From Escherichia coli (GTDB lineage: Bacteria; Pseudomonadota; Gammaproteobacteria; Enterobacterales; Enterobacteriaceae), in assembly GCF_030384885.1 (NCBI RefSeq), contig NZ_CP128613.1: a stretch of DNA of 64,000 bases; one strand, 5' to 3'. Numbering within the stretch: the first letter of the stretch is position 1; each line of letters opens with the position of its first letter. Positions 3,241-51,709 of the stretch are shown here, one piece after another. A model generated the notes under the pieces. It was given only the letters and a program-made list of their open reading frames with translations. It had not been told where the DNA came from and searched no databases. The position numbers and the translations under genes are program-made.

Positions 3241-4298
3241 GTGCTGGCAAGGGATTGTTGCTCATCATCTGTCTGTTATTTCTACCGTTAAAATCTGCGC
3301 TTGCCCTGAACTGTTACTTTGGTTCATCCGGTGGTTCGGTAGAAAAATCGGAATCTATTCAACCATTTGCTGTACCAGGGAATGCCAAACCCGGCGATAA
3401 GATCTGGGAGTCTGACGATATTAAAATTTCCGTCTATTGTGACAACAATACCAACGGCAACTTTGAGAGCGAGCATGTCTACGCCTGGGTAAACCCGTAC
3501 CCGGGAATTCAGGATCGCTATTATCAACTCGGCGTAACTTACAATGGTGTTGATTATGATGCTAACCAGGGAAAAAGCCGCATCGACACTAACCAGTGCA
3601 TCGACAGCAAAAACATTAATATTTATACCCCTGAGCAGATCATCGCGATGGGATGGCAGAACAAAATTTGCTCTGGTGATCCCAATAATATTCATATGTC
3701 GCGTACGTTTCTCGCTCGCATACGGTTATACGTCAAGATACGAGAGATACCGCCGCATGATTATCAAAGCACGCTCAGCGATTACATTGTGGTGCAATTT
3801 GATGGCGAAGGAAGCGTTAATGAGGACCCTACCGCCCAAAACCTGAAATATCATATTACCGGTCTGGAAAACATTCGGGTATTGGATTGCAGCGTCAATT
3901 TTTCTATTACCCCAGCCAACCAGGTCATTGATTTTGGTAAATTTAATGTACTGGATATCCGGCGACACAACATGACAAAAACATTCGGTATTAAAACGAC
4001 AAAATCACAAAACGATCAATGTACCGACGGATTCAAAGTCAGCTCTTCGTTTTATACCGAAGAAACGCTGGTTGAAGAAGATAAAGCATTGCTGATTGGC
4101 AATGGTCTGAAGCTACGTTTACTGGATGAAAACGCCTCGCCCTATACCTTCAACAAATACAGCGAATATGCCGACTTCACCAGTGACATGCTGATCTACG
4201 AAAAAACCTATACGGCTGAACTTTCGTCTATTCCCGGCACTCCCATTGAGGCTGGCTCCTTCGATACCGTGGTGCTTTTTAAGATTAACTATAACTAA
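3237..4298 (+). CDS. ybgO: Fimbrial-like adhesin/subunit protein
   Basis: ORF 3207..4298; start at ATG 3237 overlapping chaperone stop (ATGA); signal peptide [17 protein letters not shown]; last gene of chaperone-usher operon. Confidence 0.7.
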
Positions 4299-45630: not shown

Positions 45631-47295
45631 ATGTGTTCAATTTTTGGCGTATTCGATATCAAAACAGACGCAGTTGAGCTGCGTAAGAAAGCACTCGAGC
45701 TGTCACGCCTGATGCGTCATCGTGGCCCGGACTGGTCCGGTATTTATGCCAGCGATAACGCCATTCTCGCCCACGAACGTCTGTCCATTGTTGACGTTAA
45801 CGCGGGGGCGCAACCTCTCTACAACCAACAAAAAACTCATGTGCTGGCAGTAAACGGTGAAATCTACAACCACCAGGCATTGCGCGCTGAATATGGCGAT
45901 CGTTACCAGTTCCAGACCGGGTCTGACTGTGAAGTGATCCTCGCGCTGTATCAGGAAAAAGGGCCGGAATTTCTCGACGATTTGCAGGGCATGTTCGCTT
46001 TTGCCCTGTACGACAGCGAAAAAGATGCGTATCTGATTGGTCGCGATCATCTGGGGATCATCCCACTGTATATGGGCTATGACGAACATGGTCAGCTGTA
46101 TGTGGCCTCAGAAATGAAAGCCCTGGTGCCGGTATGCCGCACGATTAAAGAGTTCCCGGCGGGGAGCTATTTGTGGAGTCAGGACGGCGAAATCCGTTCT
46201 TATTATCACCGCGACTGGTTCGACTACGATGCGGTGAAAGATAACGTGACCGACAAAAACGAGCTGCGTCAGGCACTGGAAGATTCCGTTAAAAGCCATC
46301 TGATGTCTGATGTGCCTTACGGTGTGCTGCTTTCTGGTGGTCTGGATTCCTCAATTATTTCCGCGATCACCAAGAAATACGCAGCCCGTCGCGTGGAAGA
46401 TCAGGAACGCTCTGAAGCCTGGTGGCCGCAGCTGCACTCCTTTGCTGTAGGTCTGCCGGGTTCACCGGATCTGAAGGCAGCCCAGGAAGTGGCAAACCAT
46501 CTGGGCACTGTGCATCATGAAATTCACTTCACTGTACAGGAAGGTCTGGACGCCATCCGCGACGTGATTTACCACATTGAAACCTATGATGTGACCACTA
46601 TTCGCGCTTCAACACCGATGTATTTAATGTCGCGTAAGATCAAAGCGATGGGCATTAAAATGGTACTGTCCGGTGAAGGTTCTGATGAAGTGTTTGGCGG
46701 TTATCTCTACTTCCACAAAGCGCCGAACGCTAAAGAACTGCATGAAGAGACGGTGCGTAAACTGCTGGCCCTGCATATGTATGACTGCGCGCGTGCCAAC
46801 AAAGCGATGTCAGCCTGGGGCGTGGAAGCACGCGTTCCGTTCCTCGACAAAAAATTCCTTGATGTGGCGATGCGCATTAACCCACAGGATAAAATGTGCG
46901 GTAACGGCAAAATGGAAAAACACATCCTGCGTGAATGTTTTGAAGCGTATCTGCCTGCAAGCGTGGCCTGGCGGCAGAAAGAGCAGTTCTCCGATGGCGT
47001 CGGTTACAGTTGGATAGACACTCTGAAAGAAGTGGCGGCGCAGCAGGTTTCTGATCAACAACTCGAAACTGCCCGTTTCCGCTTCCCGTACAACACGCCG
47101 ACCTCAAAAGAAGCGTATCTGTATCGGGAAATCTTTGAAGAATTGTTCCCGCTTCCGAGCGCCGCAGAGTGCGTACCGGGCGGTCCTTCCGTCGCGTGTT
47201 CTTCCGCTAAAGCGATTGAGTGGGATGAGGCGTTCAAGAAAATGGACGATCCGTCTGGTCGTGCGGTTGGTGTTCACCAGTCGGCGTATAAGTAA
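45631..47295 (+). CDS. asnB: Asparagine synthetase B (glutamine-hydrolysing)
   Basis: ORF 45475..47295; start at MCSIFGVFDIK (N-terminal Cys nucleophile after Met), 554 aa. Confidence 0.95.
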   Translation: MCSIFGVFDIKTDAVELRKKALELSRLMRHRGPDWSGIYASDNAILAHERLSIVDVNAGAQPLYNQQKTHVLAVNGEIYNHQALRAEYGDRYQFQTGSDCEVILALYQEKGPEFLDDLQGMFAFALYDSEKDAYLIGRDHLGIIPLYMGYDEHGQLYVASEMKALVPVCRTIKEFPAGSYLWSQDGEIRSYYHRDWFDYDAVKDNVTDKNELRQALEDSVKSHLMSDVPYGVLLSGGLDSSIISAITKKYAARRVEDQERSEAWWPQLHSFAVGLPGSPDLKAAQEVANHLGTVHHEIHFTVQEGLDAIRDVIYHIETYDVTTIRASTPMYLMSRKIKAMGIKMVLSGEGSDEVFGGYLYFHKAPNAKELHEETVRKLLALHMYDCARANKAMSAWGVEARVPFLDKKFLDVAMRINPQDKMCGNGKMEKHILRECFEAYLPASVAWRQKEQFSDGVGYSWIDTLKEVAAQQVSDQQLETARFRFPYNTPTSKEAYLYREIFEELFPLPSAAECVPGGPSVACSSAKAIEWDEAFKKMDDPSGRAVGVHQSAYK

Positions 47296-47336
47296 GAAAT
47301 GCGGTACTGCCCCGGAGAAATCCGGGGCTGTTTCAG

Positions 47337-47774
47337 TTATTGAGCTGCTTGTTGATTCTGATATGCAGTAAGGAAATGTTCCGGGTTTGCCACATCACTG
47401 TTTGACAACTCATCACTGTAGGCCACCGACCAGGTCGCCTGCTCATCCGGAATATGCAGGCTGCCATTCCCCTCTTTCAGGCGTAATAACTCAAAAGATT
47501 TGCCCTTAATTACGGCGGTATAGGATTTTTCACCTTCCTGTAATGCTTTCACTTTACAGCGAAAAATCTGGCCATCGATGTCATTATCAACATGCGATAC
47601 CTGAATGAGGGCTTCATTAGAGGCTTTCGGCCCTATCCGCATCATCCACACCACAGCGCCTTCCTGCCCACGATAGCCATAAACATATTTACCGATTTCC
47701 GGTTTGACCGTATCGGCAAACGCAGATTGCATGAGTAATAACGCACCCATCAGCGCCGTCATAAAACGCAGCAT
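47337..47774 (-). CDS. Hypothetical secreted/periplasmic protein
   Basis: 145-aa ORF with SD gaggg 7 nt upstream of ATG and a classical signal peptide MLRFMTALMGALLLMQSAFA|DT; no family recognised. Confidence 0.6.
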   Translation of the reverse strand: MLRFMTALMGALLLMQSAFADTVKPEIGKYVYGYRGQEGAVVWMMRIGPKASNEALIQVSHVDNDIDGQIFRCKVKALQEGEKSYTAVIKGKSFELLRLKEGNGSLHIPDEQATWSVAYSDELSNSDVANPEHFLTAYQNQQAAQ

Positions 47775-48037
47775 AGTATTCCCTCAATAAATCGCCTGAA
47801 GTGGTAGCAGAGATGCAGGCGTAGCGATCCCTGCCCTGTCCTGTTGCAACGGGCCAGTATTTCATAGATTAATTTCCTACCACTATTGTTGAATTCCGAA
47901 TTTCATCCTGTATGACAAAAGAATGGCTGTAGGGTGGGGAAAAAACACAAAGTAAACAATAATTGACGAATATAGCGCCACGCTGTTCGCAACCTAACCA
48001 AACAGTCACTTTCGAGCAATTTTCCTTGAAAAAGAGG

Positions 48038-48075
48038 TTGACGCTGCAAGGCTCTATACGCATAATGCGCCCCGC
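48038..48075 (+). promoter_or_regulatory. Sigma70 promoter of the tRNA operon (stable-RNA type)
   Basis: -35 ttgacg (48038..48043), 17-bp spacer, -10 cataat (48061..48066), GC-rich discriminator gcgccccgc; AT-rich UP-like region upstream. Confidence 0.7.
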
Positions 48076-48106
48076 AACGCCGATAAGGTATCGCGAAAAA
48101 AAAGAT

Positions 48107-48183
48107 GGCTACGTAGCTCAGTTGGTTAGAGCACATCACTCATAATGATGGGGTCACAGGTTCGAATCCCGTCGTAGCCACCA
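48107..48183 (+). tRNA. metT: tRNA-Met (elongator, anticodon CAT)
   Basis: ggctacgtagctcagttggttagagcacatcactCATaatgatggggtcacaggttcgaatcccgtcgtagccacca; cloverleaf with CCA end. Confidence 0.95.
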
Positions 48184-48191
48184 TCTTTTTT

Positions 48192-48276
48192 GCGGGAGTG
48201 GCGAAATTGGTAGACGCACCAGATTTAGGTTCTGGCGCCGCAAGGTGTGCGAGTTCAAGTCTCGCCTCCCGCACCA
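48192..48276 (+). tRNA. leuW: tRNA-Leu (long variable arm; anticodon read as TAG, assigned by eye)
   Basis: gcgggagtggcgaaattggtagacgcaccagatttaggttctggcgccgcaaggtgtgcgagttcaagtctcgcctcccgcacca (85 nt). Confidence 0.9.
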
Positions 48277-48299
48277 TTCACCAGAAAGCGTTGTACGGA

Positions 48300-48374
48300 T
48301 GGGGTATCGCCAAGCGGTAAGGCACCGGTTTTTGATACCGGCATTCCCTGGTTCGAATCCAGGTACCCCAGCCA
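48300..48374 (+). tRNA. glnU: tRNA-Gln (anticodon TTG)
   Basis: tggggtatcgccaagcggtaaggcaccggtttTTGataccggcattccctggttcgaatccaggtaccccagcca. Confidence 0.9.
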
Positions 48375-48407
48375 TCTTCTTCGAGTAAGCGGTTCACCGC
48401 CCGGTTA

Positions 48408-48482
48408 TTGGGGTATCGCCAAGCGGTAAGGCACCGGTTTTTGATACCGGCATTCCCTGGTTCGAATCCAGGTACCCCAGCC
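48408..48482 (+). tRNA. glnW: tRNA-Gln (anticodon TTG), second copy
   Basis: Identical 75-nt sequence to 48300..48374. Confidence 0.9.
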
Positions 48483-48497
48483 ATCGAAGAAACAATC

Positions 48498-48574
48498 TGG
48501 CTACGTAGCTCAGTTGGTTAGAGCACATCACTCATAATGATGGGGTCACAGGTTCGAATCCCGTCGTAGCCACC
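48498..48574 (+). tRNA. metU: tRNA-Met (elongator, anticodon CAT), second copy
   Basis: Identical to 48107..48183. Confidence 0.95.
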
Positions 48575-48623
48575 AAATTCTGAATGTGTCGAATGCGTTC
48601 GGCAAATTCACAAACCAATTTGT

Positions 48624-48698
48624 TGGGGTATCGCCAAGCGGTAAGGCACCGGATTCTGATTCCGGCATTCCGAGGTTCGAATCCTCGTACCCCAGCCA
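48624..48698 (+). tRNA. glnV: tRNA-Gln (anticodon CTG)
   Basis: tggggtatcgccaagcggtaaggcaccggattCTGattccggcattccgaggttcgaatcctcgtaccccagcca. Confidence 0.9.
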
Positions 48699-48735
48699 AT
48701 TTATTCAAGACGCTTACCTTGTAAGTGCACCCAGT

Positions 48736-48810
48736 TGGGGTATCGCCAAGCGGTAAGGCACCGGATTCTGATTCCGGCATTCCGAGGTTCGAATCCTCGT
48801 ACCCCAGCCA
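48736..48810 (+). tRNA. glnX: tRNA-Gln (anticodon CTG), second copy
   Basis: Identical 75-nt sequence to 48624..48698. Confidence 0.9.
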
Positions 48811-48814
48811 CATT

Positions 48815-48846
48815 AAAAAAGCTCGCTTCGGCGAGCTTTTTGCTTT
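48815..48846 (+). terminator. Rho-independent terminator of tRNA operon
   Basis: aaaaaagctcgcttcggcgagctttttgcttttc: GC hairpin with GNRA-like loop plus T-run. Confidence 0.8.
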
Positions 48847-48894
48847 TCTGCGCATATTCAATGTCGAATGCGATGTTGACACGTCTTATTCTTC

Positions 48895-48950
48895 AAAGTC
48901 GGATGCGACGCTGATGCGTCTTATCCGACCTACAGTTGGCATGCATCCGG
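48895..48950. repeat. REP-like palindromic element
   Basis: gtcggatgcgacgctgatgcgtcttatccgacctaca between tRNA operon and ubiF. Confidence 0.6.
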
Positions 48951-48963
48951 CAATGTTGTAAGG

Positions 48964-50139
48964 CTATAACCCTAACGCATATTTCAGCGCCTGCCGTTTC
49001 AATACGCCAGCACGCTCCGCCGCCATTAACCCGAGATTACGCACAAAACGCAGTGGTGGCAGATTATTGCTGAATCCGGCATAAAACAGATCCATACCGC
49101 TTTGCATAATGAAGTTATCCGCCATACGCCGCATCTGGTAACGCTTGAGGACAGGATAACTGGCCCACGCTTCGCCGTAGCTGCGGGCATTCACCAGAAC
49201 GTCAATCAGGGCATCGACATCACGATAACCAAGATTCACCCCCTGCCCCGCCAGCGGATGAATGGTGTGCGCCGCATCGCCCACCAGCGCAAGCCCTGGC
49301 TGCACATACTGCAACGCATGGCGGCGCGTCAGCGGAAACGCACCAGCAGCAAGCGGCGTTACATAACCCAGACGTGACGGGAAATGCTTCGCGATTTCCG
49401 CCTGGAGCTGCGCCATATTCATATTCTGCAACTGGCGAATACGCGCTGGTGAGTCGTACCACACCAGCGATGCCCAGTTATCAAACAGCGGCAGAAACGC
49501 GCGCGGCCCGTCCGGAGTAAACTGCTGCCAGGTGCTGTCGCCGGGATCATTCTCGCACTGTACGCTAATCAACATACACGACTGCGCATACTGCCAGGCA
49601 TGAACGCCAATTCCCGCCATTTGCCGCACCTGCGAATTTGCACCGTCAGCGCCAATCACCAGCTTCGCCTGGATCACTTCGCCCCCCTTCAGTTCCAGTT
49701 CCTGAAGATCATTATGGCGATGCAGAGCAATCAGTGAGCCTGGCACACGTAACGTTACTTTCGGATGCGCTTCCAGCGCCTGCCACAGCGCCTGTTGCAG
49801 GACAGTGTTTTCCACCATATAGCCAAGCAACGGCAGCTTCAATTCGGCTGCATCAAACACCACATGCGCCGTTTCCCACTCCCACGTTTCCAGTCTGCGA
49901 TAAGGATGGCAACGCATGGCTTGTACCGCGTCCCAGACGCCTAAACCTTTAAGCAATGATACCGAAGCCGCACTAATCGCCGAGATCCGCACATCCGGCT
50001 GGCTGTCAGCGGCAAACGGCGCAGGTTCTGCGTGCTCGATTACCGTTACCGAAAATCCGTGCTGTGCCAGTCCCAGCGCCAGTGCGCCGCCGACCATTCC
50101 TCCGCCGACAATGGCAATTTCCGTTGGTTGATTTGTCAT
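48964..50139 (-). CDS. ubiF: FAD-dependent ubiquinone biosynthesis hydroxylase (UbiF-type)
   Basis: ORF 48964..50145; N-terminal FAD fingerprint IAIVGGGMVGGALALGL; start placed at MTNQPTEI. Confidence 0.85.
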   Translation of the reverse strand: MTNQPTEIAIVGGGMVGGALALGLAQHGFSVTVIEHAEPAPFAADSQPDVRISAISAASVSLLKGLGVWDAVQAMRCHPYRRLETWEWETAHVVFDAAELKLPLLGYMVENTVLQQALWQALEAHPKVTLRVPGSLIALHRHNDLQELELKGGEVIQAKLVIGADGANSQVRQMAGIGVHAWQYAQSCMLISVQCENDPGDSTWQQFTPDGPRAFLPLFDNWASLVWYDSPARIRQLQNMNMAQLQAEIAKHFPSRLGYVTPLAAGAFPLTRRHALQYVQPGLALVGDAAHTIHPLAGQGVNLGYRDVDALIDVLVNARSYGEAWASYPVLKRYQMRRMADNFIMQSGMDLFYAGFSNNLPPLRFVRNLGLMAAERAGVLKRQALKYALGL

Positions 50140-50284
50140 GGTCAATCATCCTGTTAGCAATATGCTTTAAGTTTACAGGATTTTTACCCCCAAGGGCTGA
50201 TAACGCTCATACTGGTCACAACGGCAGCAAAGCATTACACTATGCGCCCTGCATTCCTGGCTACTATTTCGCAAGAGCAAGTCG

Positions 50285-51709
50285 ATGACCAAAAAACTCC
50301 ATATTAAAACCTGGGGCTGTCAGATGAACGAGTACGATTCATCGAAGATGGCCGATCTGCTGGATGCCACCCACGGCTTTCAACTGACCGACGTGGCGGA
50401 AGAAGCGGATGTGCTGCTGCTGAACACCTGCTCAATCCGCGAGAAGGCTCAGGAAAAAGTCTTCCATCAGTTGGGTCGCTGGAAACTGTTAAAAGAGAAG
50501 AATCCAGACCTGATTATCGGCGTCGGCGGCTGCGTGGCATCGCAAGAAGGCGAGCACATTCGCCAGCGCGCCCACTATGTTGATATTATTTTTGGGCCGC
50601 AAACGCTGCACCGTCTGCCGGAGATGATCAACTCCGTGCGCGGCGACCGCAGCCCGGTTGTAGATATCAGCTTCCCGGAAATCGAGAAGTTTGACCGTCT
50701 GCCGGAACCGCGTGCCGAAGGACCAACCGCGTTTGTCTCCATCATGGAAGGCTGCAATAAATATTGCACCTACTGCGTAGTGCCTTACACCCGTGGTGAA
50801 GAGGTAAGCCGTCCTTCCGACGATATTCTGTTTGAGATTGCCCAGCTTGCGGCTCAGGGCGTGCGTGAAGTCAACCTGCTCGGTCAGAACGTGAACGCCT
50901 GGCGTGGTGAGAACTACGACGGCACCACCGGATCGTTTGCCGATCTGCTGCGTCTGGTTGCGGCGATCGACGGGATCGATCGTATTCGCTTTACCACCAG
51001 CCATCCGATCGAATTCACCGACGATATCATCGAAGTGTACCGCGACACGCCGGAGCTGGTGAGCTTCCTGCATCTGCCGGTTCAGAGCGGTTCCGATCGC
51101 ATTCTAAACCTGATGGGACGTACCCACACGGCGCTGGAGTACAAAGCGATCATCCGTAAATTGCGTGCGGCGCGTCCTGATATTCAGATCAGTTCTGACT
51201 TCATTGTCGGCTTCCCGGGCGAAACCACCGAAGACTTCGAAAAAACGATGAAGCTGATTGCCGACGTCAATTTCGACATGAGCTACAGCTTTATCTTCTC
51301 TGCACGTCCGGGTACGCCTGCCGCCGATATGGTTGATGATGTTCCGGAAGAAGAGAAGAAGCAGCGTCTGTATATTCTGCAAGAGCGCATTAATCAGCAA
51401 GCGATGGCATGGAGCCGCCGTATGCTCGGCACCACCCAGCGTATTCTGGTAGAAGGTACATCGCGTAAGAGCATCATGGAGCTTTCCGGTCGTACTGAAA
51501 ATAACCGCGTGGTTAACTTCGAAGGCACACCGGATATGATCGGTAAATTCGTCGATGTAGAAATTACCGACGTCTACCCGAACTCTCTGCGCGGTAAAGT
51601 GGTGCGAACTGAAGATGAAATGGGTCTGCGCGTGGCAGAAACACCGGAATCGGTGATTGCCCGTACCCGCAAAGAAAATGACCTTGGCGTGGGTTATTAT
51701 CAGCCGTAA
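50285..51709 (+). CDS. miaB: tRNA-i6A37 methylthiotransferase
   Basis: 474-aa ORF with radical-SAM CxxxCxxC ([11 protein letters not shown]) and N-terminal MTTase cysteines. Confidence 0.95.

Follow-up and report, generated by a model that had tools for sequence, protein, structure and literature searches.

The seven-tRNA metT operon of an Escherichia coli strain: genes, signals and the history of its identical gene pairs

The seven tRNA genes at 48107-48810 of the window (the whole 64,000-nucleotide stretch of E. coli DNA that was analysed) are the known E. coli seven-tRNA metT operon, a textbook feature that is already known. We consider it nearly certain that 48107-48810 is explained by this operon, read as one processed transcript, with an array that would have arisen by tandem duplication and would have been shaped by concerted evolution; no result contradicts the identification. 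In K-12 it is an essential housekeeping locus and a model for the mixed RNase E/RNase P route of tRNA maturation, and the value of the present analysis is one of annotation, not of discovery.

ARAGORN called seven tRNA genes on the + strand, and these are the sole tRNAs called in the whole 64-kb window. The Rfam tRNA model RF00005, run independently, returned the same seven genes with scores of 57.6 to 71.1 bits against a gathering score of 29; their E-values (6e-11 to 1e-14) lie far beyond chance. Beyond the seven tRNAs, no other Rfam family matched at threshold within 46000-51000. The preliminary description, made from the sequence alone, had proposed the order Met-Leu-Gln(UUG)-Gln(UUG)-Met-Gln(CUG)-Gln(CUG), and both programs concurred on the order as well as on the coordinates. 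The genes, with their evidence in brackets, are:

48107-48183, + strand: metT, elongator tRNA-Met(CAU), 77 nt, identical to K-12 metT and to metU (ARAGORN; Rfam, 71.1 bits)
48192-48276, + strand: leuW, tRNA-Leu(UAG), 85 nt, identical to K-12 leuW (ARAGORN; Rfam, 57.6 bits)
48300-48374, + strand: glnU, tRNA-Gln(UUG), 75 nt (ARAGORN, Rfam, K-12 annotation and alignment)
48409-48483, + strand: glnW, tRNA-Gln(UUG), identical to glnU (ARAGORN, Rfam, K-12 annotation and alignment)
48499-48575, + strand: metU, elongator tRNA-Met(CAU), identical to metT (ARAGORN, Rfam, K-12 annotation and alignment)
48624-48698, + strand: glnV, tRNA-Gln(CUG), 75 nt (ARAGORN, Rfam, K-12 annotation and alignment)
48736-48810, + strand: glnX, tRNA-Gln(CUG), identical to glnV (ARAGORN, Rfam, K-12 annotation and alignment)

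Three identical gene pairs had also been proposed, and base-by-base comparison bore this out: the Met, Gln(UUG) and Gln(CUG) pairs are each 100% identical, with every base equal within each pair. The two Gln species differ from one another at 7 of 75 positions, which comprise the wobble base of the anticodon and three stem pairs in which both partners are altered (gene positions 30/38, 49/63 and 50/62). The CCA end is encoded in all seven genes. glnV is the gene mutated in supE amber suppressors and glnU hosts supB alleles; the operon was known as the supB-E operon at the time of its sequencing in 1981. Its sequence was first determined by Nakajima, Ozeki and Shimura (Cell 1981, 23:239).

The operon is the same as the metT operon of K-12 in gene order, anticodons, seven gene sequences, promoter, leader, terminator and flanking genes. 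By annotation, the array lies between asnB upstream and the convergent ubiF downstream, both in the best-matching genome and in K-12 MG1655. Within the array, the T run of the metT>leuW spacer is one T shorter than in K-12, and the metU>glnV spacer carries three substitutions and one indel. Upstream, approximately 255 bp before metT match K-12 save for one indel and two substitutions, all of which lie more than 170 bp from metT. None of these differences touches a gene or a signal. Over a stretch of 1201 bp that includes the array, the sequence matches E. coli strain 2013C-4282 at 100% identity, and this stretch is present over at least 80% of its length in 5266 of the 5426 complete E. coli genomes. 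The corresponding number for the 841-bp core is 5355 of 5426, with 5131 of these genomes being at least 99% identical to it.

Several E. coli assemblies depart from this arrangement. Ecol_316 and GPEC1040, found among the low-coverage matches, carry six-gene variants without one Gln(CUG), which is either the expected product of recombination between glnV and glnX or a collapsed assembly. In laboratory derivatives such as EV36 and TC6, the array appears as "Gln x3" at full length, probably because a suppressor allele escapes annotation as Gln. Finally, the "complete" assembly of CEA224S (NZ_CP166080.1, locus 4001-4128) lacks the whole seven-tRNA block through a seamless deletion of 705 nt, which starts 1-2 nt ahead of metT, ends with the glnX CCA and joins the leader to the terminator. 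ARAGORN found no tRNA in the 8.1-kb CEA224S locus, and the array query matched nowhere else on that chromosome. Because the operon is essential in K-12, this deletion is likely an assembly artefact, although it is odd that its borders match those of the mature tRNA block almost exactly.

The DNA on either side of the operon holds two further items. This strain keeps 431 bp upstream that K-12 lost (window 47421-47851), and the K-12 deletion takes the start of a 145-aa ORF at 47337-47774 on the - strand, between asnB and the tRNA promoter. RefSeq annotates the ORF as a hypothetical protein; its N terminus, MLRFMTALMGALLLMQSAFA..., resembles a signal peptide, and a Pfam search returned no family at E <= 0.01. 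The interval 47337-47860 is present over at least 80% of its length in 985 of the 5426 complete E. coli genomes. On the other side, between the terminator and the end of ubiF, 48857-48933 holds two tandem units of about 33 nt that are 82% alike and 35 nt apart, the second of which is an imperfect palindrome (arms 48898-48911 and 48916-48929, 86% complementary). These repeats had no Rfam match; they resemble a REP or BIME element.

The signals that would drive and end transcription of the array are:

48029-48033, + strand: A-tract AAAAA at approximately -45 to -41, candidate proximal UP-element subsite (conservation)
48038-48043, + strand: -35 hexamer TTGACG (consensus scan; columns at least 90% conserved in the 94 upstream regions; identical in K-12)
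48061-48066, + strand: -10 hexamer CATAAT (consensus scan; conserved in 94 upstream regions; identical in K-12)
48067-48075, + strand: G+C-rich discriminator GCGCCCCGC, probably overlapping the transcription start (read from the sequence; conservation)
48074-48106, + strand: 5' leader of about 33 nt, which RNase P would remove, start approximate at 48073-48076 (start estimated from the distance to the -10 hexamer)
48816-48848, + strand: Rho-independent terminator, with a hairpin at 48816-48841 followed by T runs (scan and fold; identical in K-12)

The site TTGACG-17-CATAAT at 48038-48066 matches the consensus at 10 of 12 positions with 17-bp spacing and is the sole promoter-like site in 47700-49200; the spacers within the array are too short to contain promoters. 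As the consensus scan by itself was non-significant (1 site versus 1.6 +/- 1.3 in shuffles), the promoter call rests on conservation, identity with K-12 and the literature. For the comparison of promoters, we used the 130 nt that precede the first Met gene in each of 93 related arrays, taken from the matches listed, together with the window, giving 94 distinct regions. The pattern TTGAC[AG]-N16-18-[CT]ATAAT was kept in 90 of these 94 Enterobacterales upstream regions, and the nine-base discriminator was identical in 87 of the 90 that have the pattern. Conservation of at least 90% was found across the 94 regions in the -35 hexamer and from just before the -10 hexamer to approximately +17, while most of the sequence farther upstream was less conserved. 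The AAAAA tract also reached at least 90%, but its flanks did not; further conserved blocks in this upstream region, where stable-RNA promoters may carry UP elements or Fis sites, were CAAAC at 47999-48003, near -75, and others between approximately -92 and -72. The position of the AAAAA tract fits that of a proximal UP-element subsite, judged against the consensus AAAAAARNR. A G+C-rich discriminator is a hallmark of stringently controlled stable-RNA promoters. The initial suggestion of a stable-RNA-type promoter with such a discriminator thus agrees with the near-consensus hexamers, their 17-bp spacing and the presence of GCGCCCCGC directly after the -10 hexamer. By analogy, the discriminator would subject the metT promoter to stringent control and growth-rate dependence; the literature searched contained no test of ppGpp/DksA control at this promoter.

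At the other end, the terminator has a core stem GCTCGC/GCGAGC with a TTCG loop, which flanking A5 and T5 lengthen to 11 pairs, and is followed by GCTTTTC. Its predicted fold of -16.3 kcal/mol (z = -4.43) was equalled by 0 of 200 shuffles, in keeping with the strong terminator of the preliminary description, and a comparable hairpin with a T run lies 3' of 80 of the 94 arrays listed, the window's own being counted. In the K-12 literature, the metT-operon terminator is treated as Rho-independent, and the full-length transcript keeps it when RNase E is defective (PMC2241853). With A6 on the 5' flank of its stem and T5 on the 3' flank, 48811-48848 likewise presents a G+C-rich hairpin with a T run behind it when read on the - strand. 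The element could therefore also end the convergent ubiF transcript, as its sequence would allow; the terminator scan reported the 48816-48848 site on the + strand only.

In K-12, northern blots showed a full-length seven-tRNA species, removal of the terminator that depends on RNase E and separation of the tRNAs that depends on RNase P, which acts poorly when the terminator remains on the metT transcript; RNases T, PH and D finish the 3' ends (PMC2241853). In vitro, the triphosphorylated precursor is cut by RNase E via direct entry (PMC3985628), and the RNase E sites found in vivo in K-12 lie only downstream of metU (PMC3985628; PMC2241853). The K-12 transcription unit can be deleted only with a complementing plasmid (PMC11480407). 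All genes whose tRNAs have the anticodons CAU (elongator Met), UAG, UUG or CUG lie in it (PMC11480407; PMC6265465), with metT and metU being the sole elongator tRNA-Met genes (PMC6265465). Thus, the operon is essential in K-12 because it holds every gene for tRNA-Gln (both isoacceptors), elongator tRNA-Met and tRNA-Leu(UAG).

Since the sequences are identical, the K-12 picture of transcription and processing can be carried over, and essentiality, a single precursor and processing by RNase E and then by RNase P would hold in this strain as well. In the proposed sequence of events, one sigma-70 promoter (TTGACG-17-CATAAT with its discriminator) would give a transcript of approximately 0.77 kb, made up of the leader of about 33 nt, the seven tRNAs with spacers of 8 to 48 nt and the terminator hairpin. 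RNase E would act first, taking off the terminator and cutting in the distal part downstream of metU, as in K-12. By cutting each tRNA at its 5' end, RNase P would then set the upstream five tRNAs apart, and 3' exonucleases would trim the products to the encoded CCA.

The very high conservation of the 5' leader is the only feature not fully accounted for. In the work of Kime et al., the in vitro precursor starts at the counterpart of base 48073 (PMC3985628). An RNase P mutant accumulates unprocessed metT RNA of about 125 nt (PMC2241853), and a leader of about 33 nt fits with its size. In the 39 canonical arrays, median identity of the leader was 91% compared to 57-88% for the spacers. Columns 48059-48092, which cover the first 17 or so transcribed bases, were at least 90% conserved in the 94 distinct upstream regions, and the conservation of the early leader exceeds that of every spacer and of the DNA upstream of the -35 hexamer. 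This could reflect constraints of promoter escape or of processing. The conservation is also what speaks for a further reading, which we consider improbable, in which the leader, possibly together with the T-rich metT>leuW spacer, is functional in its own right instead of being processing waste; it might then control promoter escape or RNase P access, or act as a small RNA after its release, as the 3'ETS-leuZ sponge does. Two other ideas about the leader were rejected. A leader hairpin would be unstable (-4.8 kcal/mol, z = -0.9). As for a relic of a tRNA-Gln gene, the leader and the 5' part of tRNA-Gln have GGTATCGC in common and 13 of 16 bases agree in register, but a word at least as long appeared in 77 of 2000 shuffles.

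The six spacers measure, in order, 8, 23, 34, 15, 48 and 37 nt, and two of them have features of their own:

48184-48191, + strand: metT>leuW spacer TCTTTTTT, 8 nt, where K-12 has 9 nt (gene borders and K-12 alignment)
48576-48623, + strand: metU>glnV spacer, 48 nt, with a 12-bp interrupted hairpin (fold and K-12 alignment)

The metT>leuW spacer is the best conserved (median identity 0.88 in the 39 canonical arrays), while four of the six are poorly conserved, with median identities of 0.57 to 0.74 in the same arrays. The metU>glnV hairpin, which lies in the RNase E-sensitive distal part, is the sole fairly stable one in a spacer (-11.1 kcal/mol, z = -2.1; 6 of 200 shuffles equally stable). 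The spacers matched no Rfam family, and the literature searched reported no function for any metT-operon spacer. Among the 28 pairwise local alignments of spacers, leader and trailer, each judged against 1000 shuffles, none was significant, and the lowest uncorrected p value (0.02) came from A or T runs. A repeat search showed that repeats within the window stop at the gene borders or 2-9 nt beyond them. Thus, the spacers are indeed distinct, as had been claimed when their alignment was suggested as a check. The wording "internally duplicated units", by contrast, stood in part: the gene bodies are duplicated, whereas a gene-plus-spacer unit has left no trace in the window's spacers. Spacer homology was consequently dropped as a mark of gene-plus-spacer duplication, as no pair was significant and the repeats consist of gene bodies with 2-9 nt of flank. 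Because of this, the history of unit duplication is inferred from other genera; "built from duplicated units" appears right as history and, for the window's sequence, is drawn from that comparison.

To place the array among its relatives, one genome per species was scanned for the exact Met>Leu junction, which gave at least 120 loci, all from Enterobacterales or unclassified MAGs and ranging from Escherichia to Yersinia, Photorhabdus, Morganella, Arsenophonus and Thorsellia. With the junction in at least 120 Enterobacterales species representatives and the core in nearly all complete E. coli genomes, the array is the conserved feature that it had been taken for. Arrangements were counted in the 94 arrays clear of locus ends among the matches listed. 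Almost all of these start with Met-Leu-Gln(UUG), and the copy numbers of Gln and Met vary. The counts are given below; draft assemblies may collapse identical copies, so that genes may be under-counted:

Seven-gene order as in the window: 39 of the 94 arrays listed
One Gln(CUG) fewer: 27 of 94
One Gln(UUG) fewer: 8 of 94
Other arrangements, of 3 to 8 genes: 20 of 94

Some of the variants show duplication of larger units. Superficieibacter, Serratia silvae and a Pantoea species carry extra Gln genes with identical or near-identical spacers, which implies recent gene-plus-spacer duplication in those genera. Two Budvicia arrays contain two tandem Met-Leu-Gln units approximately 220-235 nt apart, the second of which has its own copy of the promoter (TTGACG...GATAATGCGC). 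An Arsenophonus endosymbiont, also among the variants, carries Met-Leu-Lys(UUU).

Among the arrays listed, we found 19 Met, 25 Gln(UUG) and 33 Gln(CUG) alleles, while the single-copy leuW is nearly invariant (9 alleles, the commonest in 70 of 94 arrays). We then compared paralogues in the 39 seven-gene arrays; the values are mean differences per gene pair, with the kinship of the species ignored:

Met: paralogues within a genome 0.26; same position between genomes 1.55; cross position 1.58
Gln(UUG): paralogues within a genome 0.44; same position between genomes 1.67; cross position 1.75
Gln(CUG): paralogues within a genome 1.67; same position between genomes 4.70; cross position 4.86

Within a genome, paralogues resemble each other 3- to 6-fold more closely than a given gene resembles its counterparts in other genomes, and the differences at the same position and across positions are nearly equal, so that there is no signal of positional orthology. 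This pattern points to concerted evolution. The array would have grown by tandem duplication of tRNA genes; its copies would be kept identical by gene conversion, or by gain and loss through unequal crossing-over, on top of purifying selection, and the spacers would drift freely. The comparative data are a tidy illustration of concerted evolution and copy-number turnover, and the known picture is unchanged.

An alternative, which we regard as unlikely, is that the identical pairs are ancient duplicates in which purifying selection alone maintains identity, with neither gene conversion nor turnover of copies. tRNA sequences are strongly constrained, the single-copy leuW is nearly invariant as well, and the unrelated spacers of the window would fit old duplications. 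The duplicated genes nevertheless vary among species, as their allele numbers show, and do so with their paralogues closer within a genome and without positional orthology; moreover, copy number shifts among species and even within E. coli, and the duplicated spacers of other genera reflect recent unit duplication. Concerted evolution acting together with purifying selection thus remains our preferred reading of the pairs. The single transcript faces a different challenge, namely that metU-glnV-glnX might form a second operon with its own promoter, as after duplication of a whole transcription unit. Such an architecture exists in the order, as the tandem units of Budvicia demonstrate. In the window, however, the 15-nt glnW>metU spacer cannot hold a promoter and the consensus scan of 47700-49200 found no promoter-like site inside the array, while the northern blots of K-12 detected a full-length transcript and a metU-glnV-glnX species that results from RNase P cleavage (PMC2241853). 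We therefore consider two operons highly improbable and retain one transcript for all seven genes.

We give next to no credence to the array being part of a mobile element or prophage, that is, an imported tRNA island as opposed to an operon of the core chromosome. tRNA arrays do occur on phages and plasmids, the array query matched 35 plasmid-labelled records, and a strain-variable ORF lies just upstream. Against this, the asnB/ubiF neighbourhood is common to the window, the best-matching strain and K-12; the array is in nearly all E. coli genomes, with no patchy presence, integrase or att sites seen; and in K-12 the operon carries the only genes for several essential tRNAs (PMC11480407; PMC6265465). 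The plasmid-borne copies were discarded as well, since the well-matching PLSDB records are mislabelled chromosomes or chromosome fragments of 0.28-5 Mb. E. coli records filed as plasmids that contain the chromosomal operon include CP043024.1, CP088669.1 and NZ_CP141089.1 (PLSDB). The one small plasmid-filed record examined, of 28.8 kb and 93% identity, also contains the chromosomal kdpE and is probably an error-rich chromosomal contig.

The core chromosomal metT operon can be set beside other tRNA transcription units of E. coli. The 3'ETS of leuZ acts as an sRNA sponge (Lalaouna et al. 2015, cited in PMC9514646). Similarly, the metT operon releases leader, spacers and trailer in processing, and its leader is unusually conserved; unlike 3'ETS-leuZ, most of its spacers are poorly conserved, and none has a function reported in the literature searched. 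Other tRNA operons of E. coli include argX-hisR-leuT-proM, glyW-cysT-leuZ, valV-valW and leuQ-leuP-leuV, which resemble the metT operon in having one promoter and several tRNAs with short spacers, in ending at a Rho-independent terminator and in being matured by RNase E, RNase P and 3' exonucleases (PMC2241853). They differ in how the tRNAs are separated, as the cuts are made by RNase E in the argX and glyW operons and by RNase P alone in valV-valW and leuQPV (PMC2241853). In contrast to these, the metT operon follows a mixed route, in which RNase E takes the terminator and RNase P then separates the tRNAs (PMC2241853), and it is unusual in that three tRNA species have all their genes there (PMC11480407).
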